From: an uncultured virus (IMG/VR IMGVR_UViG_3300049846_001141)
Taxonomy: Duplodnaviria > Heunggongvirae > Uroviricota > Caudoviricetes
Length of the DNA: 64,000 nucleotides
Reading direction: 5' to 3' (one strand)
Virus record (IMG/VR): IMGVR_UViG_3300049846_001141
Shown: one piece after another, positions 794-59,729 of the stretch
Layout: each line of letters begins with the position of its first letter
Position numbering within the stretch: the stretch's first letter is position 1
Translations under genes and position numbers: made by a program
Notes under the pieces: generated by a model
The model's database searches: none
Seen by the model: the letters and a program-made list of their open reading frames with translations, nothing else
What the model was told of the DNA's origin: nothing

Positions 794-836
794 TGTGTCG
801 CACTATGCTATTGTGTAGGAGACTAGAGGACCAGTA

Positions 837-4246: not shown

Positions 4247-4384
4247 TTAGCGGCCTTGGCCCACTAGCTTTTTCTTGCCGCGACGGCGTGGACGGCTATG
4301 TTGCCCGAACCCCTGACGGGTTGTTTTCGGGCGTCCGGGTTGGTGCTCAATGCGAGCGGTGCCAGTCTTACTCTTGACCGCCAT
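4247..4384 (-). CDS. Small basic protein (45 aa, MAVKSKTG...GQGR)
   Basis: Read from the sequence; homologue at 46758-46892. Confidence 0.75.
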   Translation of the reverse strand: MAVKSKTGTARIEHQPGRPKTTRQGFGQHSRPRRRGKKKLVGQGR

Positions 4385-4874
4385 CTGCCGATGCCTCGAT
4401 TACGGGTGCGGGTGCGTAAGGATCAGCAGGCCATGCTGGGTAGTCTGCGCCAGTGATGTATGCGGCAAGCGCTGCTGTATCGGCGGTCTGCTCGATCTCG
4501 TAGTTCTTGCTGCCGGCGGCTAGGCGGATTTCTTCGCGCCAAGTCTTCAGGACAGGATCAGCGGCCTTGCCATTGTCAGCTTCGCGGATGATGATCCAGT
4601 CAGTCGGAGACAGCAAGCTGTTAGCAGTAGCGCGGGTTTGCAAGACCCATTGCGTCACAAGCTCCGCGTGATCTTTGGGGATCAGAGTGCCGTCTGCGTC
4701 ATAGCCCCAGTAGAAGCGCTGGTCGTAGGGCTGGGGGTCGGGTGCTTCGGTGATGCCGATGGCTTCGCGTTCTTCAGGCGTCGCTAGGCGCAAAAAGTTA
4801 GCAGGGTACTGAATCTGATTCAGCGTAAAAGGCACATCCGGGGAGATTGGACGGCCATCAGGAAGAATGAACAT
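4368..4874 (-). CDS. Tail-fibre assembly/chaperone-like protein
   Basis: YPANFLRL...R.N.LL..TDW...WP pattern; follows the fibre genes. Confidence 0.65.
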   Translation of the reverse strand: MFILPDGRPISPDVPFTLNQIQYPANFLRLATPEEREAIGITEAPDPQPYDQRFYWGYDADGTLIPKDHAELVTQWVLQTRATANSLLSPTDWIIIREADNGKAADPVLKTWREEIRLAAGSKNYEIEQTADTAALAAYITGADYPAWPADPYAPAPVIEASADGGQE

Positions 4875-4894
4875 GGCTCGCTAGTGGGTAGTGG

Positions 4895-5548
4895 TTACCT
4901 GGCACGAGCCAGGGAGAAAGGGGACTGGTTAATCGAACGCAAAGGAGTTGTCATTGCTTTTTCAACAGGCCATTTCTGCACCCTAATTCGCTTGTGTAGT
5001 GTCTTGTACGGCATTTGAAGTTCTTCCGCCCAATCCTTCAGGCACATGGTTCGCCCGTCGTATGTCACAAGTTGCGTTCGTCGCGTGTTGCGATTCTGTT
5101 CGGCTATTGTCGCCCATCGGCAGTTTTCTTTAGAGTATGGGCCATCGCTGTCGATGCGATCTAAAGTTTTACCTTTTGGACGCTCGCCCATATCCGCGTA
5201 AAATTGCTCGAAGGCTTTCCAGTCTTCGCTGACTGTTATCCCTTTGCCGCCATAGCGCTCATAGCATCCAACATTTGGATTGGTGCAGCGAGAAAGCATA
5301 TTGGACCAAATGCGATACTCCGTACTTTGACACATGCCGTGTGTCTTATTCAGATTGCCTACAACTTCTTTTTGCAGGCATCCGCAACTGGTTGTGTTCT
5401 TGCTGCGAAGTGAAGGTCCACGCACCACGACGGTATTACCGCAGTCACACTGGCAGTTAAAAGCAAGGAACGAGCCAAGTCGACCAGCCTCTTCAAGGAC
5501 AACCAAGCGGCCGAAACGCTTGCCTACCATCGGAATCTTATTGCTCAT
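4895..5548 (-). CDS. HNH homing endonuclease
   Basis: GKRFGRLVV, CQCDCG, SCGC, YGGKGI, TLDRID.DG.Y...NCRWAT motifs. Confidence 0.9.
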   Translation of the reverse strand: MSNKIPMVGKRFGRLVVLEEAGRLGSFLAFNCQCDCGNTVVVRGPSLRSKNTTSCGCLQKEVVGNLNKTHGMCQSTEYRIWSNMLSRCTNPNVGCYERYGGKGITVSEDWKAFEQFYADMGERPKGKTLDRIDSDGPYSKENCRWATIAEQNRNTRRTQLVTYDGRTMCLKDWAEELQMPYKTLHKRIRVQKWPVEKAMTTPLRSINQSPFSLARAR

Positions 5549-7935
5549 CGCGCTCTAGCAAAATTAAATGCTACCTCACTGAAGGCGGCATACACATAAG
5601 TGCCAGCATTTGTATTGAACGTAGCGTCGGTGGTGCGCACCTTAAAACCGTTGCTCGTGATGTCGATCAGGTCTGTTGTCCCTTCGACATTGCTTCGGTT
5701 TGGATACAGCGGGTCGTTATCTACGTTGTAACCTTCGCGCTGGTAATCAAGCATTGTCCAGTCACCGGTACTGCTCGACATTTTGACAATGACAAGCGCG
5801 GGACGGAATCCCAAGTAAACAAACGGACCATCTGCGCTGCCGTTGCCGGTGTAGGAACCGAAGGCGCTGTAGCCCGCGACTGGGGCGAAGCAGTAGGCAA
5901 CAAAATTAGATCCATTGCCGTTGGTTGCAGCACCACTTCCAACAGAAAAAACTGAAGCTGTTGGGTCACTATTTGCACTTCCCCATGTAGCGTTTGCGCT
6001 ACCACCTGCAGCCGAAGTATCAAACAGCAAATAGAACGCACCACCCAATGCACGGTGGTAAATAACCCAAGAGTTTGATGTACTTCTACTTTTTACAATT
6101 AAAAACGACGGTGCAACACCCAATCCATGTCCTACTGTTGCACTTGCCCCGTTGCCAGTCCAAGTAACCACCGAAAACCCCGCACTTGGATTAGCCCGCA
6201 CCTGCGAGCTGATGGTGCCAGCGGTGTTGGTGACGGTGCTGCTGCCGGCGTCCCAGGCCCAAGAGACAAAAGACTTGCCAGATCCGTTGACTTGAATTCC
6301 ATTTCCCCCGTTGGTAAGTGTAAAACCGTCAGAAGTAAATGCAGATAGATAACCGTTAGTGTCGTTGCTGTACTCAGCACCTGTTTCGTTTGATGCCAGT
6401 ATTTTGTTTGCACCGCGTACCGTATCGTTAAACAAATTCCAGCTCAAATTATCTTGGCGGTTTTTGATCCACACAAAATCTGGCGAGAACCCGAGCCCAC
6501 TAATTGTCTGCGTGCCACCATTGCCGGTGTAGAGCTTCACATCCATCACGGTGCTGGGCTTGGTGATGGTGGGTGTTGGCAAGTTCTGCGTGCAGAGCGC
6601 CTTAAAGCCGCTGGGGGCGGTGTAGGCGAAGGGGCGTTGGCCGAAGTTCCAAGTAACGCTAGGAGCATTTGAGCCAAACGCGAAGAAATACGGCCCACTA
6701 GTTAATCCAGTAAACGCCGCAGTGCCACTATTCTGAACAGTTCCGTTTTTGTAAAAATACAAACTTCCGGCGTCAGCATCGAAGGCAATACCAATAACGT
6801 CACCGGTTGTATATGTATTTCCGTAACTTATGCCGCCGTTATTGTTTGTATATTTAAGACCATTCATTCCGTAACCCCAGCCTTCAGGGCTGCTGCCAGT
6901 CCAGTTAGAAAGAACAATTCCCCCTTTGGCTATTCCGACAAGGCAAGATCCGCCTACGTTATCTACGGTTACTTCGCAGTACCATTTGCCGCTACTCATG
7001 CCGATAGTGGCAAGAGTTGTTTTGTCAACAGCGCCAACGGCTTGGAGATTGCCGTTTGAAAGCGTGTTTCCGCCGTTAGCCAACGGATTCAACGTACAGT
7101 AATTCCCCCTCACCTGCCCCCCACTTCCCGTATCAACCTCGCTGCCATTAGTGGGAACGTCTACGAGGCTGTCGTTGCCTGCACCAGCAGCAACCGAAAT
7201 GTTGTTGACAGTCCACGTGTTCCCGTTGCCAGAAGAGTCCGTCCCTAATGCGGCGGCAGAGGCATTATTTGAGAAATCAAGGTGGAATCCATTTGTACCG
7301 TATGTTCCGGCGTACCGCTTAGGTATCCACACGCCGGTGGTAGCGGAGAACTCACCGAAGCTGCTGGGGGTCAGGGCTTGGCCGTCGATGAAGTGGACTT
7401 CGGCTAGGTAGTAGTTAGCGTAATTGTCGCCAGGATCCACCCGGCGTCCTATGTTGTGCGCGCTAGTGCGATTTACACCAGTATCAGCGTTTTGCGAGGG
7501 GTTGTTTAGTACGTCAAATGTCGTTATCTCTGACCCGTTTATATATAATCTAATCCGGCTATTTGCGGCTGCCAGTGTAGTGTCAACACTGATCAGAACA
7601 TGATACCAAGCGCTTGGATCTCTGTAGACAGCAGTTGTTGTTCTGAATGAAACCGCCCCTCCATCTACTGCCAGCTTATTGTCAGAACCGAAATACAAAA
7701 GCAGCCTGCCAGTATCCCCGTCAGTGTTCAGACCGACTGAAAACAATATAGTGGTCGCACTTATCGCGGACCTCTTGATCCACCCGCTCCACGTCCACGT
7801 TTTCCTGTTTCCCGCTGATGCCGGGGTGCGGCTCAGGTAAGCCGAATCCGCTGAGTTGAATCGCAGACTGCGCTCAATCTTGTAGCCACCTGCACCACCA
7901 AGCAGGAGTGGGTTGCCGGCACCAGGAATCGACAT
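5545..7935 (-). CDS. Tail fibre / receptor-binding protein with ConA(LamG)-like and SPRY-like domains
   Basis: SLRFN, WTWSGWIKR, SAWYH, GKWYCE, GDVIGIAFD, NFGQRPF motifs. Confidence 0.8.
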   Translation of the reverse strand: MSIPGAGNPLLLGGAGGYKIERSLRFNSADSAYLSRTPASAGNRKTWTWSGWIKRSAISATTILFSVGLNTDGDTGRLLLYFGSDNKLAVDGGAVSFRTTTAVYRDPSAWYHVLISVDTTLAAANSRIRLYINGSEITTFDVLNNPSQNADTGVNRTSAHNIGRRVDPGDNYANYYLAEVHFIDGQALTPSSFGEFSATTGVWIPKRYAGTYGTNGFHLDFSNNASAAALGTDSSGNGNTWTVNNISVAAGAGNDSLVDVPTNGSEVDTGSGGQVRGNYCTLNPLANGGNTLSNGNLQAVGAVDKTTLATIGMSSGKWYCEVTVDNVGGSCLVGIAKGGIVLSNWTGSSPEGWGYGMNGLKYTNNNGGISYGNTYTTGDVIGIAFDADAGSLYFYKNGTVQNSGTAAFTGLTSGPYFFAFGSNAPSVTWNFGQRPFAYTAPSGFKALCTQNLPTPTITKPSTVMDVKLYTGNGGTQTISGLGFSPDFVWIKNRQDNLSWNLFNDTVRGANKILASNETGAEYSNDTNGYLSAFTSDGFTLTNGGNGIQVNGSGKSFVSWAWDAGSSTVTNTAGTISSQVRANPSAGFSVVTWTGNGASATVGHGLGVAPSFLIVKSRSTSNSWVIYHRALGGAFYLLFDTSAAGGSANATWGSANSDPTASVFSVGSGAATNGNGSNFVAYCFAPVAGYSAFGSYTGNGSADGPFVYLGFRPALVIVKMSSSTGDWTMLDYQREGYNVDNDPLYPNRSNVEGTTDLIDITSNGFKVRTTDATFNTNAGTYVYAAFSEVAFNFARAR
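7149..7163. other. Candidate recombinase core site TAGA-CGTTCCC-ACTA (gene strand)
   Basis: Encodes V-D-V-P-T at the junction between LamG-like and SPRY-like regions. Confidence 0.5.
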
Positions 7936-7936
7936 C

Positions 7937-9634
7937 TCAGCTCAGGTTGGTGATCAGTTGGGCGGTGATTTGCGTGGCCGACTGGACTGCGTAAACCAGG
8001 CAATCCCGTGCATTAGCCGTTGTGGTTAATGTCGGCGCGGTGCCGCCGGTGAAGTCCCAATAGCTGCCGTATGCCAGCGTGCGGGAGCCGGTGCCGTCCT
8101 GCGTGATCCAGATGCAGCCGGACTGCCCAGCAACCAAGTTGGTTGGATTGGCGAGAGTGCGGTTACCGCCAAGAGTCACGCTGTAGTTGTTGCTGTCGCT
8201 GAAATCTGGCGTGATCGTAGCCCCATCCGTGAGAGCTGTAATCTCACCGCGTTGGCCTTTTGTCCAAGTCTGCGCTGTATCCAGTCCTGCACCAGAGGCT
8301 GGTGTTGTCCAGCTAAGAGTGCCGGAGCCGTTGGTACTCAGGACTTGGGATGCAGTTCCATCAGCACTGGGTAGCGTCCAAGTGATATTACTTGCGACAG
8401 TTGCCGGAGCTTGGAAGGCGACCCAGTTGCTGCTATCCGCGTCCGCAAAACGCAGATCGGATTGAGCGTTAAGTGTTACGTCGCCAGTAAGCGTTCCACC
8501 GGCTTTGGGGAGTGCTGCGTTGGCCAAGTCGTATGCAGACTTGACGCTGTTGGGAGTAGCAGCAGTTGTAGTGCTGGTGCTGCTAGTGCTATCGGTTAGC
8601 TGTACGACGCCGGCAACAGAAGTAGAAGCGGCGGTGCCAGCTACGGAAATTGAGCCGCTGCCGTTCGTGATTGTGATGCCGGTACCGGCACTCAGTGTTG
8701 CTTTGGTAAGAGTGTTGCCGGTGCTATTGCCAATCAGCAGTTGGCCGTCGGTATAGGTGGTTTGCCCGGTGCCGCCGTCTGCAACACCAAGTGTTCCAGT
8801 GATGCTGCTGGCGCCAAGGTCAACAGCCAGTGCGTTGGTCTCGGTAACAAGACCGCCATTCGCCTTAAGACTCAGCGAAATATCGGGGGCTGTGCCACCC
8901 GAACTTGCGATTGGAGCGGTGCCGGTGACGCCGGTGACTGTTCCACCAGATCCAGCGGCTGCAATGGTGATTGAGCCGTTGCCGTTGGTAATCGTGACGC
9001 CGGCCCCAGCGGTCAACGTTGCTTTCGTCAGCGTGTTACCTGTGCTGTTACCAATCAGCAGTTGACCGTTGGTATAGCTGGTTTGGCCAGTGCCTCCTTT
9101 ATCGACAGCAATAGTCGAAGCGCTCCAGGTACCTGTGGTGACGGTGCCGAGGCTGGTAAGGCTGGAGCCGGTGACGCCGCTGCCGAGTGTTGTGCTGCTT
9201 AGGACCTGGCTGCCGTTGATGTAGTAGCTCTTGCCGCTGGCGAGGTCGACGTGCTCACTGCTGGTCCACGCATCCGTGGCGTTGACCCAGTTCAGTGTTT
9301 TGTTTGTCGCACCACGCAGAGTGATGCCGCCACCGTCAGCAGTTACATCGGTGGGAGTGGCGACTGCGCCAAGCTCGATATTTTTGTCGTCAACTACGAC
9401 TGTTGTGCTTTCAATCGTTGTGCTGGTGCCGTTGACCGTAAGGTCGCCAGTGATAACGACGTCATCGCCGAAGGTGACTGGGCCAGCGTTCAGTCGGGCG
9501 CCAGCCTTAACGAGGTCGGCAGCGGTGATCTTTTTGGTCTCGGTTGCCGAAATATCCGCAACAGCCAAAACGTCGGCGGATACAACGTCCGCTTCCGCTA
9601 TGGCTGCCAGCTGACTGATCTTGAGATTGGCCAT
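7937..9634 (-). CDS. Tail fibre protein
   Basis: Gly/Thr-rich; internal GGTGQT.YT.GQLLIGN duplication; GVVQL...AATP motif; LGGNRTLANP C-terminus. Confidence 0.8.
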   Translation of the reverse strand: MANLKISQLAAIAEADVVSADVLAVADISATETKKITAADLVKAGARLNAGPVTFGDDVVITGDLTVNGTSTTIESTTVVVDDKNIELGAVATPTDVTADGGGITLRGATNKTLNWVNATDAWTSSEHVDLASGKSYYINGSQVLSSTTLGSGVTGSSLTSLGTVTTGTWSASTIAVDKGGTGQTSYTNGQLLIGNSTGNTLTKATLTAGAGVTITNGNGSITIAAAGSGGTVTGVTGTAPIASSGGTAPDISLSLKANGGLVTETNALAVDLGASSITGTLGVADGGTGQTTYTDGQLLIGNSTGNTLTKATLSAGTGITITNGSGSISVAGTAASTSVAGVVQLTDSTSSTSTTTAATPNSVKSAYDLANAALPKAGGTLTGDVTLNAQSDLRFADADSSNWVAFQAPATVASNITWTLPSADGTASQVLSTNGSGTLSWTTPASGAGLDTAQTWTKGQRGEITALTDGATITPDFSDSNNYSVTLGGNRTLANPTNLVAGQSGCIWITQDGTGSRTLAYGSYWDFTGGTAPTLTTTANARDCLVYAVQSATQITAQLITNLS

Positions 9635-40861: not shown

Positions 40862-42688
40862 TTGGACTTTCTTCTTGGCATCGAGCATCTCCACACGCTC
40901 GACGATGAACGGCTGATCGCGTTTGACTCGGAGACGACGCAGCTCCAGCCGAAGATGGGTGGGATGCGGCTTTTGCAGTTGGGTGCTCCAGGCAAACAGC
41001 CTGTGGTGCTCGACTGCTTTGATTTGGACGACAACGACTGGATCACAGTCGAAGAGTTTTTCGGTGTAGAGCGCACTTGGGTGGCGCACAACGCGGTGTT
41101 TGATCTCGGCTGGCTGCAAGAGCACGAGATTTATCCGGCGGGCAAAGTGTTGTGCACCATGCTGGCGAGTCGGATTCTTACCAACGGGATGCCCAACGTG
41201 AAGCACGGGCTCCAGCACTTGGTAAAACGCTACCTGCACGAGGATATTTCTAAGGAAGAGCAGAAGAGCGATTGGTCGGGTGATCTGACCGAGAGCCAGC
41301 TGGAATATGCGGCAAAGGATGTGTTGGTGTTGTTGGATTTGTTTGATCAGATCCAGCAGAGGATGGCGACGGCTGCGCTCCACCCGGCTTGGTATCTGGA
41401 GTGCAATGCGTTGCCAGCTATGGCGCAGTTGTGGCGAACTGGCCTTCCTTTTAATGAGAAAGACCTAAAGCAGTTGATTGAAGATCTCGATATTGAGCAT
41501 TACGAAGTAGGCGAAAAGTTTATTGAGGATTTTGATGCTGCACTGTCCGAAGGTGACAAGCTGTGCCGTGGGATTGATGGGAAGTTGCTGTACCAGACAA
41601 AGCCTGGGCCGAAGGGTAAAAAGGTCGATCCAAACGTGTTCAACCTCAATAGTCCGGCGCAGCTGTTGAAAAAATTCACTGCGTTGTTGGGCGAGGCGCC
41701 GATTGACGCAAAGAACGGAAAGCCCAGTGCTAGTCGGATGGCGCTCCAGGAATATGTTGGGGATCACAAGATTGTGGCTGATTATTTGCGGTGGAAAAAA
41801 GTTGAAAAGAAGCGCCAGATGGCGGAGTCGTTATTGAAAAGTTTGGCGAAGGATGGGTTTATTCGTGCCAGCTATATGCAAATGGGGGCTGATACCGGAA
41901 GGATGAGTTGCATGAGTCCCAACTTGCAACAGATTCCAAGGGATCAACGGTTTAGGGCTTGTGTTCAAGCGCCAGAAGGATGGAAATTTGTGGTGGCGGA
42001 CTATGGGCAGATGGAGTTGAGGTTGGCGGCGGCGGAAGCTAAGGATTCTCTTATGACTCAGGTGTTCCAGCAGGGGAAAGACCTTCATACGATTACGGCG
42101 ACGCAGATTTATGGGGTCGCAGAGGGTGAAGTTACAAAGGAGCAGCGTCAGATCAGTAAGTCGGCGAATTTCGGGTTGCTCTATGGCTCGGGTGCAAAAG
42201 GACTCCGAAACTATGCGGCCTCGACCGGAGTACAGATGGATCTTGCTGAGGCTGCGGAAGTGCGGGAAAAGTTTCACGCTGCATATAAAGGCATCTCCGC
42301 ATGGCAGCGCAAAAATGCTCGCGATGCTGATGCGGCTAAGGACAATCCATCTATCCGCATACGCATCTCGGGCTTGCGGCGGTTTTTACCGGGCGAGAAC
42401 AACAAACTCACCACGCGCTGTAATACACCAATCCAAGGGGCTGGTGCAGCAGTCCTCAAACTTACTCTCGGCAAATTGTGGCCGTTACTCCACGCCGACG
42501 GGGAAGATGTTGTGCGCTTGGCCGGCGTGGTGCATGACGAGATCATCTTGCTCGTCGCTGAAGAACACGCCGACACTTGGGCGCTCCAGCTGCAATCCGT
42601 GATGGAAGAGTGTGAGGCGAAGTGGTTAGGCGAGATTCCGCCGCTTGCCGAAGCTAAGGTCGGGGATAGCTGGGATCAGGCGAAGTGA
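40862..42688 (+). CDS. polA: DNA polymerase family A with 3'-5' exonuclease
   Basis: FDSET, HNAVFD, YAAKD, PNLQQIP, DYGQMELR, KSANFGLLYG, VHDEI. Confidence 0.95.
   Translation: MDFLLGIEHLHTLDDERLIAFDSETTQLQPKMGGMRLLQLGAPGKQPVVLDCFDLDDNDWITVEEFFGVERTWVAHNAVFDLGWLQEHEIYPAGKVLCTMLASRILTNGMPNVKHGLQHLVKRYLHEDISKEEQKSDWSGDLTESQLEYAAKDVLVLLDLFDQIQQRMATAALHPAWYLECNALPAMAQLWRTGLPFNEKDLKQLIEDLDIEHYEVGEKFIEDFDAALSEGDKLCRGIDGKLLYQTKPGPKGKKVDPNVFNLNSPAQLLKKFTALLGEAPIDAKNGKPSASRMALQEYVGDHKIVADYLRWKKVEKKRQMAESLLKSLAKDGFIRASYMQMGADTGRMSCMSPNLQQIPRDQRFRACVQAPEGWKFVVADYGQMELRLAAAEAKDSLMTQVFQQGKDLHTITATQIYGVAEGEVTKEQRQISKSANFGLLYGSGAKGLRNYAASTGVQMDLAEAAEVREKFHAAYKGISAWQRKNARDADAAKDNPSIRIRISGLRRFLPGENNKLTTRCNTPIQGAGAAVLKLTLGKLWPLLHADGEDVVRLAGVVHDEIILLVAEEHADTWALQLQSVMEECEAKWLGEIPPLAEAKVGDSWDQAK
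42275..42420 (+). repeat. Exact 146-bp direct repeat, copy 2
   Basis: Identical to 1-146. Confidence 0.95.
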
Positions 42689-43079: not shown

Positions 43080-43122
43080 TGTGTCGCAGTATGCTACTGT
43101 GTAGCAGACTAGAGAAGCAGCA

Positions 43123-46757: not shown

Positions 46758-46892
46758 TTAGCGTCCTTGACCTCTTAGCTTTTTGCGCCCGTGATTGGGC
46801 AGGCTGTTTTGTCCTTGACCCTGGCGCGTTTTCTTGGGACGGCCGGGTTTGTGGTCGAGGCGCCCCAGTGCGGTTTTGGATTTAACAGCCAT
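46758..46892 (-). CDS. Small basic protein
   Basis: Homologue of 4247-4384. Confidence 0.75.
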   Translation of the reverse strand: MAVKSKTALGRLDHKPGRPKKTRQGQGQNSLPNHGRKKLRGQGR

Positions 46893-47209
46893 CAGTTAGC
46901 CCACGGTACACCACTGCCTGTCACCGGATTGCGCTGCAGGTCGATCTGGTTCTGCAGTGCCTGCTGGATCTCCTGCACTTTTTCATCACCAAAGTGATTA
47001 GCGACCCAGCTGGCGACGGTGAATTCGTCGAGATCAGCGAAGGGGATCATCGCAGCAGGATCTGCAGGCTTAAGGCCAACACTGCCATAGGCGCTGCTGC
47101 TGTAGGTGCCATCGTGGGCGCTGACCGTGTAATGAACGGTCGTGACCATGCCATCGGCAAGGTTGCGCTCCATGTTGGCAACTTTCCAGGCGTAGGTGGT
47201 GTCAGCCAC
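46892..47209 (-). CDS. Tail-fibre-associated hypothetical protein
   Basis: W.VANMER...G.V.TVHY...IPFADL.E..V..WV...GVPW family pattern. Confidence 0.7.
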   Translation of the reverse strand: MADTTYAWKVANMERNLADGMVTTVHYTVSAHDGTYSSSAYGSVGLKPADPAAMIPFADLDEFTVASWVANHFGDEKVQEIQQALQNQIDLQRNPVTGSGVPWAN

Positions 47210-47233: not shown

Positions 47234-48082
47234 TCATAATACCGGCATTTCGTACTCTTGTGTAGTATTGCAGTAGTGCTTAAAAATCACTTCGCTAGTG
47301 TTTCCAGCCCACGCCGCTACCTGTGGTACGGGAATCCCTGCTTCAATCCAGCGGCTTATAGCTGTGTGTCGGCAATCGTATGGTCGATACACATGCGAAA
47401 TTAGCTCTGCCTGCTTAAGCGGGGATAGCTTTTTACGGAAGTAACTCTGAAAAGCCAATCTATTCCACGGGAAGATAAACTTATCGGTTTTTGGTAAATC
47501 TTCCAAGATTTCTACGCAGCGCTGATTCAGAGGAACCCATCGCTTTTTATTTGTCTTTGTGCTGTTTTTTAGTCCGTGAGTAAGTGTGTAGTTTTGATGA
47601 ACAAGAATTTTATTGTCTTTTATGTCGTCCCACATAAGGGAACGCACTTCGCCAGTACGCATTGCAGTCTGCAACATAAATTCCGTGTAGCTAGCCCAGT
47701 TGACGTGACGGTAAGTTTGTTTACCTTCTAGTGCTGCTAGTACCAAGCCCACTTCGTTTCTAGGTATAACAACTATCTCCTCATCTTTTTGTGGGGCTTT
47801 TGGCATTTTGAAGCTGGCGAGAGGGTTGCGTTCCAGCAGAGCAACGTCTTCCTGAGCAGCCCACTTGTACATGGTTTTTAGATACATGGCCACGCGCCTG
47901 GCCGTTAAGACTGGTTGCTGCTGCAAGACCCAGATCATGATTTGCCTTGCTTGAGCCGGGTCTTGTATTGGGCACTGGGCCAGTCGCTTCGATACCTGCC
48001 GATAATCCGACGTAAGGCTGGTAGGGCATAAGGAAATGGAGCGCTCTTCCAGGAAGGCGCTCCAGAGATCATTCAATTTCAC
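47234..48082 (-). CDS. Tyrosine recombinase (integrase family; no arm-binding domain evident)
   Basis: TAMRTGEV (R), STKT (K), PYDCRHT (Y-x-x-R), WAGN, FKHY (Y). Confidence 0.9.
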   Translation of the reverse strand: MKLNDLWSAFLEERSISLCPTSLTSDYRQVSKRLAQCPIQDPAQARQIMIWVLQQQPVLTARRVAMYLKTMYKWAAQEDVALLERNPLASFKMPKAPQKDEEIVVIPRNEVGLVLAALEGKQTYRHVNWASYTEFMLQTAMRTGEVRSLMWDDIKDNKILVHQNYTLTHGLKNSTKTNKKRWVPLNQRCVEILEDLPKTDKFIFPWNRLAFQSYFRKKLSPLKQAELISHVYRPYDCRHTAISRWIEAGIPVPQVAAWAGNTSEVIFKHYCNTTQEYEMPVL

Positions 48083-48090
48083 TGGAGTGT

Positions 48091-48139
48091 AGTATGGATG
48101 TACTCTACTACACTACACTATAGGGTACCCTTTTGTCAA
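48091..48139 (-). promoter_or_regulatory. Recombinase promoter with LexA-like operator
   Basis: TTGACA (48139-48134), 18 bp, TAGTGT; AGTATGGATGTACT at 48091-48104. Confidence 0.5.
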
Positions 48140-48143
48140 ACAG

Positions 48144-48158
48144 TAGTGACGTGGACTA
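48144..48158. other. Candidate recombinase core site TAGT-CCACGTC-ACTA (gene strand)
   Basis: Perfect 4-bp inverted arms and 7-bp spacer just upstream of the recombinase promoter. Confidence 0.65.
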
Positions 48159-48228
48159 ACGGCTTTGCTCAAAAACAAGTCTGGCTGACAAAGAATGCGG
48201 CTGCCATACTCATGCTGCGCAAAACCAG

Positions 48229-48243
48229 TATCGAAGGGGACTA
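48229..48243. other. Degenerate core site TAGT-CCCCTTC-GATA
   Basis: Begins 1 bp after the tail-fibre stop codon. Confidence 0.45.
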
Positions 48244-48244
48244 A

Positions 48245-50929
48245 TCAGCAGGCCATCAGTACACAAGGCACGCAGTAGCTGCCGTCGTCATAGGTGCAGC
48301 TCACATTGGTGCTGGTCACCTTGGCGATGGTCTTGCTGCGGATGATGTCGTCATCTTGTGGTTTGGCGGTGCCATCACCAGCGGACATCAGCAGATTACC
48401 GCGCTCAACAGTGACGCCAGCGCCAATACGGATGATGAAGTCACCCGTCATCGCGCAGTAGAAATCGTTGGTGTAGGTGTCATCGTCATCGTCCCAAGCT
48501 TGGAACACGCCGGACACGTTCTTGTCACCTTCGACATCGCTCACCTTCATCCGGTTGAGCTGTTCGTTGTCCTCCTCGCCCCATTCGCACATCTCGTCGA
48601 TGTTAGACAGCACAGAGCCACGCAGAATTTCAGTGCGCTCAGCACCAGAAGGAAGTTGCGACCAGCGGCTTAGGTGAGCACCGTTGTAGGAGACGGTGGT
48701 GCCGGAGACAGAAATGCTGCCTTCTTGTACTGCATCTTGCTGAATCTCAACGATGGTTCCGTCGCTTGTATTACGGTTTACATAAAGACAAGTCCCAGAA
48801 GATCGCGCCAGTATCTCAACACCAGAACTCCAGAATTCAACACCATTTGAAGATGAGTTATCAGGAGTCTTGCCAATCCCAACACGCTGCTGCGAATCAA
48901 TGCGAAGCGCTTCAGTTGGACTTGCCTGGCCATCTTTAGTAGTGGAGAACACTAGACGGCCTGGCATGTCATTAGCGCCAGGGGTGCCGTCTACAACAGC
49001 CACGATCTCGGCAGCCCTTGTGTCTAAATCAGTGCCATCCGCGCCTGCAAAAATAATTTGCCCGAGAGTGTCGCCATTTTGAACAATCGTTGACGAGCCA
49101 ACAGTTGTTCCGCGAGATTTTCCGATAATGAATCGCGGTCCATTTGTATCGTTTCTGTTAAGAACACATGTAAAAGGTGTCAGGTCTGCTGATGGCTGCT
49201 CAATGTAGATACCTGAGTTTTGTGCGCTCTGGAATCCTTCTCCGACCGCACGGACACTAGACGTACCAACTAAGAGCCTGCCGGAGCTGTCGATGCGGGC
49301 GCGTTCGGTAGTGGACTGATAGAAGACCGTGGAGCCACCGTTTGTCGATAAAAAGGCGTCGGTACCGTTATGAGCTAACTCAACAGTTCCTGAGCCCGAT
49401 TGCACTCTGGATGTAATTACGCCAGATGCTCCATAAACGTGGTGGTTGACTGCCGGACTCGCGGTTCCGATGCCGACGTTGCCGAGATGGGTAATTGTTA
49501 CCGCTTCGCTAAGCGTGCCGTTGTTTAATGTTGATAGCTTAAGGCCAGAGCCTACGCCTTGAGAAATGTAGCCACCAATGGCTCCTCCATAGCCGCTGTC
49601 TTTTTCAAGCCTGAGATAAGTAGCGGAAGTTCCAGTAACGTTGGCAGATGAAAGAAGCTGACCAAGATAAGTTGTTGCACTGTTGCTGCTAGAGACGGCG
49701 GTAAGCAAATATCCAGGACTACTAGTCCCCACGCCCACGAGGCCAGCCGAGGTGATTCGCAGGCGTTCTTGAGGGGTTACTGAGGCTGATGGAGTGGTGT
49801 TGAAAGTAAGAGACCCTGGCGAAGAGGTGCTGCTGACGGCTCCATCCGAGACACCAGCGACAGTGCTGACTGCCCTATAAGCGGTACTATCAAATCCTTG
49901 GAACCGGACTGCACCAAGTGTTGTTGATGTAGAAATTGCTGCTGGAGAAGCTTGACTGCCTTCCGCCGCCCTTAAATTAATGCCCGGACCGCCACCAGCT
50001 CTGTGGACGCTCAAGTTGCTTTCTGTTTTAAAGTCAATACTGCCATCGCTATTCACAAACAACCGCCCAGTGCCATTAGTCGAGATGGCTACTTGATCTG
50101 CGCCGGGGGAGTAGATGCCGGTGTTAGTGTCCGCGCCGAAGATCAGCGATGGCGTTGCAGCACTGCCTGCAGGCAGGTCCACCGCCTGATTGCTGGTCCA
50201 GGCGTCGGTGGTATCGCTCCAGGTGATCGTCTTATCGGTGGCGCCTTTCAGCGTGATGCCGCCACCGTCTGCTGTGGTGTCGGTGGGTGTGGCAACATCC
50301 GCAAGGATGATGTTCTTGTCTTCAACGACAAGGTTCTGCGTATTGATATTGGTAGTGGTGCCGTTGACGGTCAAATCGCCCGCAATGGTGACCGCCGCAT
50401 CAAACGTGGCAGCACCAGTCACGTCCAACGTGCCAGGCACATCAACGTTGCTAGTCCACTCAACGCCAGTGCCGGCAGCATCGGTCTGCAGCAGTTGACG
50501 CGCTGCACCATCCGCCAGCTTGCTGACGGCGATCTCAGCACTGGCGCTGATATCCGCGTCAACGATGCTGGCGTTACCGCTCACGATGACGGTGCCGCTT
50601 TGGTTGGGCAGCGTGATCGTGCGATCAGCTGTCGGATCTGTCACCGCCAGCGTGGTCTCAAACCCATTAGCGGTGCTGCCTTCAAACGTCAGCGTGCCTG
50701 TGCTGCCGATCTCCAGATTTCCCAGCACCGTGCCGCCGGAGACGACGAACGGGAAGTAAGCGAGGCTGTTCCAGGCAGTGCTGCCGTTGCCGACCTTTAG
50801 CTTCTTGGTGTCGGTTTCGAGTGCCAGCTCGTTGTTGAGCAGGACAGGGTTGACGGACGACCAGTTGGCGGCTGTATCAGCGCGAAGCTGCAGTTTGACT
50901 TGGACTGTTGTGGGAGTCGGTGTTGTCAT
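48245..50929 (-). CDS. Modular tail fibre protein
   Basis: QLRADTAANW...ETDT.KLKVG.G N-terminus; repeated ER.RI...G.VG.GT modules; YCVPCVLMAC C-terminus. Confidence 0.85.
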   Translation of the reverse strand: MTTPTPTTVQVKLQLRADTAANWSSVNPVLLNNELALETDTKKLKVGNGSTAWNSLAYFPFVVSGGTVLGNLEIGSTGTLTFEGSTANGFETTLAVTDPTADRTITLPNQSGTVIVSGNASIVDADISASAEIAVSKLADGAARQLLQTDAAGTGVEWTSNVDVPGTLDVTGAATFDAAVTIAGDLTVNGTTTNINTQNLVVEDKNIILADVATPTDTTADGGGITLKGATDKTITWSDTTDAWTSNQAVDLPAGSAATPSLIFGADTNTGIYSPGADQVAISTNGTGRLFVNSDGSIDFKTESNLSVHRAGGGPGINLRAAEGSQASPAAISTSTTLGAVRFQGFDSTAYRAVSTVAGVSDGAVSSTSSPGSLTFNTTPSASVTPQERLRITSAGLVGVGTSSPGYLLTAVSSSNSATTYLGQLLSSANVTGTSATYLRLEKDSGYGGAIGGYISQGVGSGLKLSTLNNGTLSEAVTITHLGNVGIGTASPAVNHHVYGASGVITSRVQSGSGTVELAHNGTDAFLSTNGGSTVFYQSTTERARIDSSGRLLVGTSSVRAVGEGFQSAQNSGIYIEQPSADLTPFTCVLNRNDTNGPRFIIGKSRGTTVGSSTIVQNGDTLGQIIFAGADGTDLDTRAAEIVAVVDGTPGANDMPGRLVFSTTKDGQASPTEALRIDSQQRVGIGKTPDNSSSNGVEFWSSGVEILARSSGTCLYVNRNTSDGTIVEIQQDAVQEGSISVSGTTVSYNGAHLSRWSQLPSGAERTEILRGSVLSNIDEMCEWGEEDNEQLNRMKVSDVEGDKNVSGVFQAWDDDDDTYTNDFYCAMTGDFIIRIGAGVTVERGNLLMSAGDGTAKPQDDDIIRSKTIAKVTSTNVSCTYDDGSYCVPCVLMAC
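48940..48954. other. In-gene core site TAGT-GTTCTCC-ACTA
   Basis: Encodes L-V-F-S-T. Confidence 0.6.
49258..49272. other. In-gene core site TAGT-TGGTACG-TCTA
   Basis: Encodes L-V-G-T-S. Confidence 0.55.
50077..50091. other. In-gene core site TAGC-CATCTCG-ACTA
   Basis: Encodes V-A-I-S-T at the end of the GC-rich N-terminal part. Confidence 0.55.
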
Positions 50930-54852: not shown

Positions 54853-57800
54853 CAGCTCACACCTTGGTAGCGGCGACCGCCAGAGGTACGGGAGTTCTCG
54901 AAGATCGTAGCGGCAAAGTCTTGCAGAATCTGCTCCAGGTCCTTAAGGCTGACGTATTTTTCGCCGTTGTTCTGTTGGATTACGGGTCCGGTCTGCAGGT
55001 TGATTGTGCTTGGGAAGCTGTCAATGATGGCTGTACCAGGGCCGCCGCCCGGTTGGCGCGATAGGCCGGTAGCAAGTGGTGCAGTAAGCGGGATCGGCGC
55101 GGTACTTGGAGTTTTAGTAAGTGGGGCAGCGGGTGTTTCTGTAGAAATGGCAGGTGCTCCCGCTGCTTTCTGCTGCAGTACATAGTCTCTAAACGCAATA
55201 CGAGCGATTGCGTCGCGGGCACGCTGCAAAATATCCGCTTGGATGCTGGCGATGCCTTTTGTAGCGGCAAAACGCTCGGCATCTTTCCAGATCTTTTCGG
55301 CTTGCGCCTTGAGTCCTGGATCTTGGATAGCTCCGGCGCCACCCATCGCGGCGAACGGTGCCCCAGTCATTCCGCCCATGGCGCCAGCGGCGCGTTCCAT
55401 GTTGCCGGCGAATTGTCCTGCAGCAGCGGCAACGCCGCCCATTTCTTTTTTGAGTTGGGCGGCGTCGACGGCGGCTTTGAATACCGCGTCGGCTGCTTTC
55501 AACTGCCATTGGGCAATTTGGCCGGCTGTGGTGAGATTATCTTTAGCGATGCGTAGTGCAGATCCTTGTGCTTCAAGTGCTTCGTAGTGAGCGCGATTGA
55601 CTACGCCTTCGGCTTTTGCAATTTCTACAACAGCCCGCAACTCTTCGTATTTAAGTTGGACTGCTCGATATGCAGCTTGGGTCCGTGCCAGTTCAGCTTT
55701 AACTTGGGCACGAGTTGCTTCAAGAGCAACGCGAGCATTTTGTACTTCTAGCTCATAGATACGCTCCAGTATTTTGGCGCGTTGTCCTGTGCTGCTAGTG
55801 CGTTCCAGTTCGCGCGTAAGTCCTTCGATTTCTATGTTATTTATTGTTTGAACTGCTTGACTGATAGCAGCAGTCAGTGAAGCACGATTGCTAAGTGTGC
55901 TGGTCTGCTCTTCTAGTGCTCGTGTCGCTTTTTCTGTGTTACGTGCGTACTCCGCTGCGTACTCTGCTACTACAGCTTGCTTACGTTCAATTTCTATGAT
56001 GTACGTAGCTTGTTTGTAAACTTCGTTAGCAATGTCTTTTTCAATCTTCGCTTGAGCTACGGTATTTTGGTATATCTTGTACCTGTTTTGGTATTCTTCG
56101 ACAGAAAGTTGACCCGCTTTAAATCGGGCATCGAGTATAGCAAAATCTAGTTGCGCTTGTTTTATTGCTGAGTCTTGATTACGGATTACATTATCGCGTT
56201 CTAAGGCGGCAATCTTTAACTTTTGCGCTTGTATAGCATTAACAGAATTTACTTCTTGGTTTAAGTACAGGTTGAAGTCTTTTTGTACTTGTAAGCGCTG
56301 CAGTTCATTTTGCAGACGTGTTTTTTGTAGATTACTTTGTGTGTTTTCTAGTTGACTACGGCTTGCTTCCAAATCTTTCAAGGACTGCATGTACGATATG
56401 TATACGTCTAGTAGAGCTTGTTGTTTTGCTCTTTTAGCCGCGAGATCCGCTTCTTGTTTTTGCAGTTCTGAGTTAGCGATAGCTATATCTCTCTTTAGTT
56501 TAAGTTGTTGCGCAGTAAGATTAACGCTGTCCGTGTTAATCTGCTTTAGCTCTTTTTCTAAATCTGTTTCACTCTGTAGGTATGCTTTTTTACGTTCTGC
56601 CTCAATTTGCGATATACGTGCTTCTTCGGTAGTACCTTGAATTATCTGCTTATCTATGGCTAAACGCTGTTTTCTCGTCTGCAAATCAACTACTCCTGCA
56701 TCAATAGCAGCTTGGGCAGCGGCAACAAGTTTTTGCTGTTCTTCCGTATTTTGAGGTAAAACTTTTGCTAGTTGTTGGAGGAACGCTCCAACTGGATTGA
56801 GTATGGGTAAGTACGTGTTAAATATCTTGCCTAGTTCTCTTGCGCCTGAAACAACGACGTTAATACCTTTGAGGACAAGATTTACTAGCTGAAGTACGCC
56901 AGCCAGTGCAGTCTGGAGTTCGACTGTAAATACGGCTAATAGAGTATTTACAGTTCCGCTGACTGCGTTCCAGGCGGCTGAAAGCTGTTTTGTCGCTCTT
57001 GTTGAGTCTTGGATACCTGAACCAAGTGAGCCAGTCTGATTAGCGATTTCTTTTGCAATTACTGCACGAGCTTGGTCGTACTTGCCTGCTTCTACCAGTA
57101 GACGTACTTGATTATCGAGTTCAGCGGTTACATTGATTGTTGATTCGCGCAAAGCTTGAACGTCAAGCTTGCTTAGTGCTGAGCCTAGTTCTGCTGTTTT
57201 CTGGATGGCGGCACCAAAAATTTGGTCGAGCTTTTGGCCGACGGCAGAAAGACCGATGCTTAGGGCCATGCCGGCCATGCCGCCCATCTTTCCACCAATA
57301 AGACCGCCAGCAGCGCCACCGACGATGGCACCCGGTCCACCGCCAAACAGCATTGGAAAGCCGCCTCCCAAAATGGCGTCAAGAACACCAGGCCGCTCTA
57401 AGCCTGTCGGCGGTGCTTTCGGTCCTTGCATGCCAAAGCCAGCATTTTGAATACGTTCACGCCTAGTAGCTTCTTCACTTAACCGCTGGCGAGCGCCTGC
57501 ACTAGCAGCGCCCTCACGACTACGGATTGCAGCAGCAGCTTCTTGGGCTTGAATAAGTAAATCGGTTGCTAAATTTTGTGCTTCAGTAAAGAAAGTATTC
57601 CAGCTATTCTTTATGTTCATAGCTTTTGCTGTTGCGGCTGCTTGTAGTTCCTGTCCTAATTGTGCGGCCTCTGTAAAGAAGGTGTTCCAGCTATTTCTAA
57701 TGTTTAGTGTTTTTGCTTTTGCAGCTACCTGCACCTCTTGACCTAGGTCAGCAGCTTCTGTAAAGAAGGTGTTCCAGCTGTTTCTGATGTTTAGTGTTTT

Positions 57801-58268
57801 TGCTTTTGCGTTTGTTTGTAACTCTCTGCCTAGTTCGTCTGCTTGAATAAAAAACGTGTTCCAGGCTTGCTGGATCTCGCGCCCGCGTACCACTGCTGGA
57901 GGTAGCGCAGGACCTTGTTGCCCAAAAGGTGCTATTGAAGGATTTACACGTCTTTGATTGGCTATTTCTTGAGCAACTAATGAGTTCTGACGTGCACGGG
58001 CTGCGTTAGCCTCTCCGAGAGCTTTTACGTATTCTTGAATAGCTTTTGTTTCTGCTTGTGTGCCAGCACCTACGCGCTCAAGAGACGCTGCAGCTCGATT
58101 TAAGTTGTTTACGTAATTTTCTATGTTTTGAACTAATCCACCACGGGCACCTACAACATCGTTAAGGCTGTCTACAGCTTGAGCAGTTTTATTTATGTCT
58201 GAGCGAAGCTGCTCTAGGGCACGTACGCCGACTACGCCGATTTCAATATCAGCTCTATAAGCGGCCAC
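54852..58268 (-). CDS. Tape measure protein
   Basis: 1138 aa; synteny. Confidence 0.85.
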   Translation of the reverse strand: MAAYRADIEIGVVGVRALEQLRSDINKTAQAVDSLNDVVGARGGLVQNIENYVNNLNRAAASLERVGAGTQAETKAIQEYVKALGEANAARARQNSLVAQEIANQRRVNPSIAPFGQQGPALPPAVVRGREIQQAWNTFFIQADELGRELQTNAKAKTLNIRNSWNTFFTEAADLGQEVQVAAKAKTLNIRNSWNTFFTEAAQLGQELQAAATAKAMNIKNSWNTFFTEAQNLATDLLIQAQEAAAAIRSREGAASAGARQRLSEEATRRERIQNAGFGMQGPKAPPTGLERPGVLDAILGGGFPMLFGGGPGAIVGGAAGGLIGGKMGGMAGMALSIGLSAVGQKLDQIFGAAIQKTAELGSALSKLDVQALRESTINVTAELDNQVRLLVEAGKYDQARAVIAKEIANQTGSLGSGIQDSTRATKQLSAAWNAVSGTVNTLLAVFTVELQTALAGVLQLVNLVLKGINVVVSGARELGKIFNTYLPILNPVGAFLQQLAKVLPQNTEEQQKLVAAAQAAIDAGVVDLQTRKQRLAIDKQIIQGTTEEARISQIEAERKKAYLQSETDLEKELKQINTDSVNLTAQQLKLKRDIAIANSELQKQEADLAAKRAKQQALLDVYISYMQSLKDLEASRSQLENTQSNLQKTRLQNELQRLQVQKDFNLYLNQEVNSVNAIQAQKLKIAALERDNVIRNQDSAIKQAQLDFAILDARFKAGQLSVEEYQNRYKIYQNTVAQAKIEKDIANEVYKQATYIIEIERKQAVVAEYAAEYARNTEKATRALEEQTSTLSNRASLTAAISQAVQTINNIEIEGLTRELERTSSTGQRAKILERIYELEVQNARVALEATRAQVKAELARTQAAYRAVQLKYEELRAVVEIAKAEGVVNRAHYEALEAQGSALRIAKDNLTTAGQIAQWQLKAADAVFKAAVDAAQLKKEMGGVAAAAGQFAGNMERAAGAMGGMTGAPFAAMGGAGAIQDPGLKAQAEKIWKDAERFAATKGIASIQADILQRARDAIARIAFRDYVLQQKAAGAPAISTETPAAPLTKTPSTAPIPLTAPLATGLSRQPGGGPGTAIIDSFPSTINLQTGPVIQQNNGEKYVSLKDLEQILQDFAATIFENSRTSGGRRYQGVS
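57580..57870 (-). repeat. 87-bp (29-aa) tandem repeat in the tape measure gene
   Basis: WNTFF four times; K.LNIRNSWNTFFTEA..LGQE unit. Confidence 0.85.
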
Positions 58269-58859: not shown

Positions 58860-58903
58860 AAAACTGCTAATTAAGACTTTTGTAGTGTAGCGGACTAGAA
58901 ATG

Positions 58904-58932: not shown

Positions 58933-58961
58933 GTTGCTGAACTGACTGCTGTAGCAGACTA

Positions 58962-59729
58962 TCAGGACTTGGCGAGGTCGAAGGTGGGGGCGGCGCTGGG
59001 GCGGAAGGCAATTTCCACGCTCTGGCCGTCGTCGGGGTTCACGGTGAGGCTGGCCGAGGTCAGGATCACGGGAACAGTGATCGAACGGCTCAGGGTGTCG
59101 TCCACAGAACCGCCGCTCACCACGCGGTCGATGTACAGCTTCATCGTGGCGCCCACTTGCTGGCGCTGCAGCACGTCTTCCACCATCCGGTTGGACAGGT
59201 TGGTGTCGTCGTCGGTGGTGTACACAGTTGCAGAGCCAGAACCATCGGCAAAGCCGGTGATGTAGCTGCGGAAGGGTGCGTACTGACCCAGGGTTTGACC
59301 GATGACTGTAACATCAATCTCGCTTCGTGTAATTTCGAAGCTCCACTCGCGTACAGAACCCACTACAGCGGGAGCGCCATAAGCCACCTTGAAGGCATTA
59401 GGGGCCACAGCGGTGCCGTTGTCGGTAATAGCTACAGAAGCACCGCCCAGAGTTGCCGAAACAGTCAGTGCTCCGGTGGCGGGGGTGTAGCCGATCACGT
59501 AGTAGGTGGTGCCTGCAGACAGACCAGCAGGGAGGGTGCCAGTACCAGCGGCGCCGGTTTCGGTGTTGACGATGCTGAACTTGACGGGATCGCCGACTTT
59601 GAAGTTCAGGTAGGTGTCAACAGTGATGACGTCGGTGGTGTCGTTGACAGCTGCTTCGCCAAAGGTGGCGGTGGTGCCTGCAGGTGCGTAGTAGAGGGCG
59701 CCGGAAGTGCCCGAGAGAACGGTGGCCAT
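58962..59729 (-). CDS. Major tail protein
   Basis: Homologue of 17788-18534. Confidence 0.85.
   Translation of the reverse strand: MATVLSGTSGALYYAPAGTTATFGEAAVNDTTDVITVDTYLNFKVGDPVKFSIVNTETGAAGTGTLPAGLSAGTTYYVIGYTPATGALTVSATLGGASVAITDNGTAVAPNAFKVAYGAPAVVGSVREWSFEITRSEIDVTVIGQTLGQYAPFRSYITGFADGSGSATVYTTDDDTNLSNRMVEDVLQRQQVGATMKLYIDRVVSGGSVDDTLSRSITVPVILTSASLTVNPDDGQSVEIAFRPSAAPTFDLAKS

Follow-up and report, generated by a model that had tools for sequence, protein, structure and literature searches.

The window that we analyzed is a 64,000-nucleotide (nt) stretch of DNA from an uncultured virus (IMG/VR record IMGVR_UViG_3300049846_001141), in which two related phage genomes lie head to tail: unit A (approximately positions 20-42293, about 42.3 kb) and, behind it, unit B. 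Our analysis concerns a locus of unit B (47234-50929) at which a tail-fibre gene and the gene for a tyrosine recombinase (integrase) are found together with recurring copies of the 15-bp motif TAG-N9-CTA (Table 1). Unit B is an S-LBS1-like Synechococcus siphovirus from freshwater, and the locus constitutes its host-range and accessory region; the best match of the locus at the DNA level is phage S-LBS1, and Synechococcus phages account for 31 of the 35 records that match it by DNA. An earlier reading of this DNA, made from its letters alone (the sequence-only reading), had proposed that the recombinase encoded behind the fibre gene swaps fibre modules at the motif copies. The inventory on which this proposal was built is correct: a 282-amino acid tyrosine recombinase is indeed encoded co-oriented with, and behind, the fibre gene, and the four exact copies of the motif (50077, 49258, 48940, and 48144) as well as the degenerate ones at 49723 and 48229 are all present. 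The interpretation that we favor, and that we hold with some confidence, is nevertheless a different one: the copies within the fibre gene (boxes) are joints for general recombination, those between genes (linkers) are a separate element, and the integrase gene is an optional cassette.

Table 1. Positions in the window of the genes, boxes and linkers at the fibre-integrase locus.
Feature	Position	Strand	Sequence	Remarks
DUF7936 gene	46892-47209	(-)		Conserved right-hand neighbour; directly after the last linker in relatives without integrase
Tyrosine recombinase (phage integrase) gene	47234-48082	(-)		282 amino acids; PF00589, phrog_1
Extra exact TAG-N9-CTA copy	47761-47775	(-)		Within the recombinase gene; missed by the sequence-only reading
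Integrase leader	48083-48143	(-)	TTGACA (48134-48139), 18-nt gap, TAGTGT (48110-48115)	
Junction linker 2	48144-48158	(-)	TAGTCCACGTCACTA	Left border of the integrase cassette
Junction linker 1	48229-48243	(-)	TAGTCCCCTTCGATA	Starts 1 nt past the TGA stop codon of the fibre gene
Tail-fibre gene	48245-50929	(-)		894 amino acids; Mtd_N domain, tail-fibre PHROGs
In-gene box	48940-48954	(-)	TAGTGTTCTCCACTA	Peptide LVFSTT
In-gene box	49258-49272	(-)	TAGTTGGTACGTCTA	Peptide LVGTSS; ends the ERARIDSSGRL island
Degenerate box	49723-49737	(-)	TGGGCGTGGGGACTA	Peptide VGVGTS
In-gene box	50077-50091	(-)	TAGCCATCTCGACTA	Peptide VAISTN

The fibre protein begins with an N-terminal Mtd_N-like anchor, which is followed by a mosaic of ER.RI..G.VGIGT-type modules encoded by DNA with a lower content of guanine plus cytosine (GC). 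The drop in GC content that had been noticed downstream of 50077 is borne out: the value is about 0.59 over the first 900 nt of the gene and about 0.50 (0.49-0.55) beyond them. Short DNA islands of this gene match fibre genes in 38 phage records, and those at all three exact boxes have counterparts in the fibre genes of podo-, myo- and siphoviruses. The box at 50077 lies inside the conserved YSPGADQVAISTNGTGRLF island, where the GC-rich anchor gives way to the distal fibre, and the same 15-mer is found in the podovirus S-CBP4. S-LBS1 contains the 15-mer of the box at 49258 in identical form, and that of the box at 48940 occurs 22 times among the relatives of the locus and also in S-CBP4 and S-LBS1. 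As had been observed before, the three exact in-gene copies share one phase (phase 1), with GTA, TTA or CTA as the first codon and ACT or TCT thereafter. The degenerate box at 49723 keeps the CTA arm only, because its first codon is GTG instead of GTA. The extra exact copy inside the recombinase gene is a chance occurrence and serves as an internal negative control: at that peptide it is kept in 1 of 98 integrase homologues, and the synonymous sites drift freely.

Within the whole window we counted 14 TAG-N9-CTA sites versus an expectation of 6.85 ± 2.35, a number that was reached in none of 100 shuffles. The fibre gene holds three sites compared to 0.51 in 2000 codon shuffles (p = 0.011), and the whole locus holds five compared to 0.73 (family-wise 0.08); 93% of the fibre-gene shuffles contain an equally extreme 3-mer inverted-repeat pattern among the 832 patterns tested, and the significance of the single-gene count is lost once the choice of the motif is corrected for. 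In codon shuffles of the fibre gene, the pattern GCA-N9-TGC is enriched above TAG-N9-CTA (6 vs. 0.86), and both patterns span 15 nt, i.e., five codons. The 12-mer TAGTCACCTTCA, with up to three mismatches allowed, is barely enriched in the window (53 vs. 38.9). The loci of the relatives provide data that had no part in the definition of the motif; their 113 long open reading frames (ORFs) contain 137 TAG-N9-CTA sites where 36.8 are expected, 125 of which are in phase 1. A small number of 15-mers is repeated, with 11-29 occurrences each among these ORFs, and one of them is found in 28 different sequence contexts. An excess over chance, for which the sequence-only reading had proposed codon-shuffled controls, is thus seen in the ORFs of the relatives; in the fibre gene of the window it is not significant after correction.

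For an assessment of codon usage, we selected instances of the motif by their peptide alone ([LV][VGA][FILV][GS][TS][TSN]; n = 107). NTA serves as the first codon in 99 of these 107 instances and ACT as the fifth in 91 of the 98 that have Thr at this position; both arms are present in 85 of the 107. Elsewhere in these genes, at sites of matching nucleotide context outside the motif, GTA is used in 13%, TTA plus CTA in 18%, and ACT in 17.5% of the cases. The synonymous positions of the 15-mers are therefore locked in the homologues, a behavior that the sequence-only reading had made a touchstone of its proposal. Just beyond the edges of the 15-mer the choice is free (TTA 31 vs. CTA 18; sixth codon ACT 30, ACG 20, ACC 11). 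Approximately seven classes of boxes can be distinguished, whose centres differ even at synonymous Gly codons and which all keep NTA-G...NCT-A. The lock is tight in the freshwater group and looser in marine relatives, where TGG...CTA, TAG...CTG and TAG...CCA variants are found. Taken together, the counts across the family, the codon lock, the free positions outside the 15-mer and the control copy at 47761 lead us to conclude that the boxes are a real, family-wide feature at the nucleotide level. Chance as the origin of the in-gene copies, a view that arose from the underpowered tests on the single gene and the locus, is ruled out by the family-level tests.

To map mosaic breakpoints, we defined segments that are shared among the relatives at an identity of at least 88% over at least 250 nt and that have 92 internal ends. 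Eleven of these 92 ends fall inside a box, compared to 0.9% of random positions, and 30% lie within 40 nt of a box, compared to 6.5% of random positions. The expected concentration of breakpoints on the 15-mers is hence present, with a caveat about alignment edges to which we return below. In three of the four closest relatives (L215, L218, and L219; integrases 93-99% identical), homology to the window begins exactly at 48158, and at this position the three have different linker variants and different upstream neighbours. Contigs from four runs, each of a different study, accumulate at three places only, 48915-49055, 49197-49337, and 50043-50183, the last of these peaks being that at the box at 50077. 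Contigs of other phages break off at 48158, at 48233 in linker 1, at 48938 beside the box at 48940, and at 49255 next to the box at 49258; each of these positions is within 3 nt of the edge of a box or linker. Contig "joints" that skip between box islands were considered as traces of excision and rejected, as they represent fibre genes of other phages in the metagenomes (the data being contigs, not raw reads, so that rare circles or deletions would escape notice). The motif occurs in dissimilar fibre genes, breakpoints are concentrated at it, and it is present independently of a dedicated site-specific recombinase.

The sequence-only reading had treated the in-gene and the intergenic copies as one motif. 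This does not hold, since two elements had been pooled: codon-locked peptide boxes on the one hand and, on the other, one-directional stop-codon linkers, an element distinct from the boxes. In the relatives, the fibre gene and each small ORF up to the integrase end in TAG-TC-N5-C-N-CT..., where the TAG is usually the stop codon itself and the distance to the start codon of the following gene is often no more than about 17 nt. Conservation of the linkers spans only positions from about -1 to +14, with neither a paired arm nor a hairpin. They are present in 24 of 31 loci without and in all seven loci with the integrase. The TAG of linker 1 corresponds to the stop codon of the fibre gene in relatives, and the 15-mer of linker 2 is found in L142, a relative without integrase, as the stop codon plus linker of a small ORF that leads to DUF7936. 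The window has just these two linkers, with a non-coding remnant and no small ORFs between them; its other gene junctions are devoid of linkers. In the relatives, the small ORFs between fibre and integrase genes are paralogous accessory genes with HNH endonucleases among them. Small paralogous ORFs of this kind are tandemly multiplied 0.1-2.3 kb upstream of the integrase gene (in L016, L039, L072, L074, and other loci); their products start with MTQ(E/Q)DY..HPITPPPEL, contain RRPKPPSLKEQAL internally, end in IRRALEQL(P)D, and belong to no known family. A related motif, TAGTC[TC][CG]CTACA, is found on the minus strand at four other non-coding spots of the window (814-825, 43100-43111, 58886-58897, and 58950-58961); one of these copies directly follows the stop codon of a 255-amino acid gene at 58962, and two are at the matching place in units A and B.

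With the exact 15-mer TAGGGATTGGCACTA as the query, we found 75 unique viral loci, 72 of which have it in fibre-like open frames of at least 250 codons. Loci lacking the integrase were counted as assessable when at least 3.5 kb were visible downstream; among the 36 assessable loci, nine have the integrase and 27 lack it in the canonical slot, most of them running straight to DUF7936. Other instances of the motif keep both arms in 62 of 88 cases in loci without and in 17 of 20 cases in loci with the integrase. Two boxes of the window recur without a single difference in the podovirus S-CBP4, whose whole record contains no match to PF00589. The size of the site bears on the same question. Core sites of tyrosine recombinases have arms of roughly 9-13 bp around a centre of 6-8 bp. 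The conserved unit seen here measures about 15-16 bp, with arms of 3-4 bp and a centre of 7-9 bp, and is, judged by this established knowledge, too short for such a core site. Hence, the neighbouring integrase does not appear to act on the boxes. The role that the earlier proposal gave to the sites, that of in-frame joints, is partly supported; the assignment of the adjacent recombinase as the enzyme is not supported, given the many loci without it and its absence from S-CBP4.

The integrase matches PF00589 with 56.8 bits (cut-off 27.1) over residues 114-274 and the integrase family phrog_1 with an E-value of 1e-39. Across 18 sequences there is no variation in its catalytic residues R142, K176/K179, R238, and Y270; Y235 and either N261 or W258 appear to occupy the two His positions, as assigned by eye and without a structural alignment. 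The protein has no arm-binding domain and resembles Xer models and solved structures only weakly; the search against solved structures returned no usable relative, and none is close among the solved or curated ones. It is encoded by the best-conserved gene in the neighbourhood (mostly 77-85% amino acid identity vs. 40-60% for DUF7936), and among 50,697 phage records a close homologue is present in S-LBS1 only (78% identity). The linkage of the recombinase to tail fibres that had been suggested is tight whenever the gene is present (fibre-integrase-DUF7936): DUF7936 follows the integrase in 76 of 82 loci, after a gap of 24 nt in the window, and a fibre-like gene is ahead of it in most loci that reach far enough upstream. 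All 80 integrase loci of a metagenome scan are in phage context. The reported absence of a repressor or excisionase nearby is supported as well, as PHROGs names neither among 38 ORFs in the other half of the genome of unit B.

Since both linkers of the window are also found in L142, where DUF7936 follows at once, the integrase gene together with its TTGACA-N18-TAGTGT leader can be recognized as an inserted cassette. The integrase is thus an accessory cassette that, by analogy, probably serves host integration. The leader is a candidate promoter and, in addition, a candidate operator or core-like site. It contains a perfect 9-bp inverted repeat, AGTGTAGTA / TACTACACT (48086-48094 and 48106-48114), with an 11-nt centre, which overlaps the likely -10 element and is kept in the closest relative, L215, and partly in others. 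TTGACA is present in 24 of 57 upstream regions of relatives, and TTGACA-N17/18-TAnnnT is readable in many. A simple consensus promoter scan did not call the TTGACA-N18-TAGTGT sequence of the window, and the hairpin of the leader is no more stable than those of shuffled sequences (z = -0.77). In four relatives (L020:5891-5964, L218:312-383, L236:1912-1985, and L294:7876-7949), a tRNA-like cassette of 72-74 nt, about 95% alike among them, lies immediately ahead of the integrase gene, with a junction linker on either side; ARAGORN calls it Leu(CAA) or Arg(ACG). The window lacks this cassette, which might be connected with integration or with tRNA-dependent lysogeny. An attachment site (attP) derived from a tRNA was accordingly considered for the window and rejected, as the cassette has not even a partial match near the window's integrase.

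In the interpretation that we favor, the in-gene boxes would represent the frozen DNA spelling of short peptides between fibre modules and would provide short identical joints that many cyanophages share in their fibre genes. When phages co-infect a cell, general homologous or short-homology recombination between them could then swap modules in frame at the boxes, as our mapping of breakpoints suggests; the phage encodes an exonuclease and a protein resembling single-stranded DNA-binding proteins, which could support general recombination. The stop-codon linkers would terminate the fibre gene and each small accessory gene ahead of DUF7936, and gene cassettes would be exchanged there too. The integrase gene would form a self-contained and optional cassette, with a likely promoter of its own, that is placed between the last linker and DUF7936; judging from T7-like cyanophages, the enzyme most likely catalyzes integration at a host site, perhaps transiently and without true lysogeny.

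Several points weigh against this interpretation. Only 12% of the segment ends are in boxes and 88% are elsewhere, and the enrichment is partly built in, because BLAST extension through any conserved island favors the edges of the island. Among the six module motifs in the window, only three have a full box and one has half a box. General recombination alone leaves unexplained why the same TAG...CTA ends recur across classes with differing centres and why conservation stops sharply at the edges of the 15-mer; the ends common to all classes and the sharp codon lock exceed what simple homology-driven exchange predicts. Moreover, a co-infecting phage may supply the integrase in trans. With respect to host integration, all 160 integrase loci that we fetched are in phage context without a host-flanked copy, and 185,579 species genomes contain two integrase matches, both on phage-like contigs in metagenome-assembled genomes of non-cyanobacterial organisms. 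Neither an attP nor an adjacent tRNA fragment was found at the window's integrase, and neither a bacterial attachment site (attB) nor an integrated copy was found in the loci and genomes covered by these scans, which were not aimed at cyanobacteria.

The recurrence of the same ends would be accounted for if another sequence-specific factor, such as an HNH endonuclease, a host restriction/modification enzyme or a dimeric DNA-binding protein, read TAG-N9-CTA and nicked or marked the boxes, making them recombination hot spots or giving them some other role at the DNA level. Dimeric proteins typically have bipartite palindromes as their targets, classes that differ at synonymous sites of their centres have the same locked ends, the lock loosens from the freshwater group to the marine relatives, and HNH endonuclease genes are common in the loci. 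We still judge such a factor unlikely: none of our tests linked a candidate protein to the boxes, the motif is not enriched outside the fibre locus (9 of the window's 14 sites vs. the whole-window expectation of 6.85), and conservation extends to the centres, for which there would be no need if only the ends were read. We are similarly doubtful that the TAG-N9-CTA ends are the signal for a dedicated enzyme (an HNH endonuclease, a host factor or the integrase in trans) that would cut or pair the boxes, with the class-specific 9-bp centres dictating the partner; if true, co-infecting cyanophages would exchange their fibre modules in frame by a programmed process, a targeted route of host-range diversification distinct from diversity-generating retroelements (DGRs) and invertases. 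It is also quite improbable, in our estimation, that the boxes have no function at the DNA level and merely reflect protein constraint combined with recent shared ancestry of, or gene conversion among, paralogous modules, with palindromic ends that are accidental. The peptide does fix the G of TAG as well as the C and A of CTA, and hence just two synonymous choices form the arms; the modules are paralogous repeats, and hence the classes are not independent; and the corrected count within this gene lacks significance. However, a 93% use of codons that account for 13-18% elsewhere in the same genes and context is difficult to reconcile with this view, as are the divergence of adjacent synonymous positions, the character of the boxes as islands between unrelated flanks (one 15-mer in as many as 28 contexts), and the drift of the integrase gene at the synonymous sites of an equally conserved peptide.

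We consider it very unlikely that the tyrosine recombinase, acting in cis or in trans, recognizes TAG...CTA and swaps modules and cassettes as part of an integron-like or lox-like phage system. Such a system would fit the layout, in which every one of the co-oriented cassettes has a short site at its end and the integrase promoter directly adjoins the array; the class-specific centres are in line with the rule that the centres of partner sites must match, the integrase is unusually conserved with its catalytic residues intact, and neither an attP nor a repressor was found. Yet boxes and linkers occur to an equal extent in loci that lack the integrase, and also in a phage without any tyrosine recombinase; the conserved site comprises just about 15 bp with arms of 3-4 bp; and the linkers are one-directional and lack extended inverted repeats. 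The integrase itself has a linker on its left, like a passenger gene, and its best NCBIfam match covering integron integrases (the integron-integrase/XerA model NF040815) reaches 18.4 bits versus a cut-off of 220.

Both units of the window represent S-LBS1-like Synechococcus siphoviruses. Direct repeats with a spacing of 41.2-42.5 kb pair positions 1-22,500 with 42,275-63,700 at identities of 69-94%. Since the 39,837-bp virus record G001, which has 108-bp terminal repeats, matches positions 42294-64000 with its first 21,707 bases at 100% identity, unit A is a separate relative ahead of unit B; the junction is at 42293/42294, and the first 19 bases of the window are similar to the end of unit A. 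The presence of both units in one window could reflect a two-strain chimeric assembly or a real heteroconcatemer. A tblastn search of the whole window gave no second copy of the recombinase, and unit A, which is complete, therefore lacks the integrase, as had been stated before. The same slot of unit A (4368-9634 vs. 47234-50929 in unit B) holds quite different genes, namely those for a Phage_fiber_2 fibre (565 amino acids), a SPRY plus DUF7483 protein (796 amino acids), an HNH endonuclease (217 amino acids), and a 168-amino acid ORF; it is without integrase, DUF7936 and linkers. In unit B, ARAGORN calls a "tRNA-Stop (tta)" at 55662-55738 (+) within a gene for a tape-measure-like protein of 1138 amino acids, probably a false call; the same gene contains three tandem 87-nt repeats (57569-57829).

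Among known systems, integrons resemble the locus in having co-oriented small ORFs with one short 3' site each, arrayed next to a tyrosine recombinase gene. They differ in that attC-type imperfect inverted repeats are lacking here (none of at least 40 nt is present in the window), in that the integrase gene is co-oriented with and downstream of the array, and in that arrays are as frequent without it; the NF040815 score does not point to an enzyme of the IntI type. Invertible fibre segments (Gin/Cin/Min, or the Rci shufflon) are not indicated either, as there are no inverted pairs, boxes and linkers being co-oriented with the gene, and no inverse fibre-like sequence is found downstream. The Mtd_N domain suggests a DGR; no repeat pair of the window involves the fibre gene, and PHROGs names no reverse transcriptase among the 38 ORFs of the other genome half and 14 near the locus, the remaining ORFs being unscanned. 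For T7-like cyanophages, an integrase has been described that mediates integration at a host tRNA-Leu gene in the course of lytic infection, with neither lysogeny nor a repressor (Shitrit et al., 2021; PMC8776855). This is the best analogy that we can offer for an integrase in an otherwise lytic-looking cyanophage with no recognizable repressor, although in the window there is no tRNA-like stretch beside the integrase gene, only 24 nt separate it from DUF7936, and the two integrase families are not close. The linkers are reminiscent of the promoter-early stem-loop (PeSL) cassettes of T4-type phages, which consist of a promoter and a terminator stem-loop and punctuate, as short intergenic repeats, a hyperplastic region of small, non-essential genes that recombination between the repeats shuffles, deletes and inserts (Arbiol et al., 2010; PMC2839356). 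In contrast to PeSLs, the linkers found here are about 15 nt long and form no hairpin; they are continuous with the stop codon on one side and extend to the start codon that follows.

The closest counterpart is S-LBS1 itself (MG271909), for which the accessible text of the report describes a fibre gene of low GC content and an induction experiment that gave no prophage (Zhong et al., 2018; PMC6157547). Its gene order, tail fibre followed by integrase and a DUF7936-like gene, is that of the window, and its fibre gene has three TAG-N9-CTA boxes, two of them letter-identical to those of the window, whereas its fibre protein differs to a large extent (30-49% identity in pieces). The same text places a proposed att motif in the portal and helicase genes, away from the integrase, and contains no description of boxes or linkers (PMC6157547). 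The order of fibre and integrase genes has hence already been published for S-LBS1 (PMC6157547). Our analysis adds the record of a well-conserved and widespread integrase in phages without visible lysogeny control. The exchange of fibre modules driven by this integrase is an attractive idea, and wrong by our analysis.

The exchange of modules at conserved motifs is a known principle. In the distal fibre and adhesin genes of T-even phages, recombination occurs between conserved motifs (the "His boxes" of gp37 and the glycine-rich motifs of gp38), which separate hypervariable segments, are shared by otherwise unrelated phages, and are the places of mosaic joints for which no site-specific recombinase is needed. 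The boxes described here differ from these motifs in that the 15-mers are locked at synonymous sites, have common TAG...CTA ends and keep a single reading phase, a combination that, to our knowledge, has not been reported for the T-even motifs. Since tail fibres decide which cyanobacteria a phage kills, the exchange of fibre parts shapes phage-host dynamics in lakes. To the known principle, the locus adds family-wide joints of 15 bases, letter-perfect where the protein imposes no constraint, at which fibre modules and accessory genes appear to have been swapped repeatedly.

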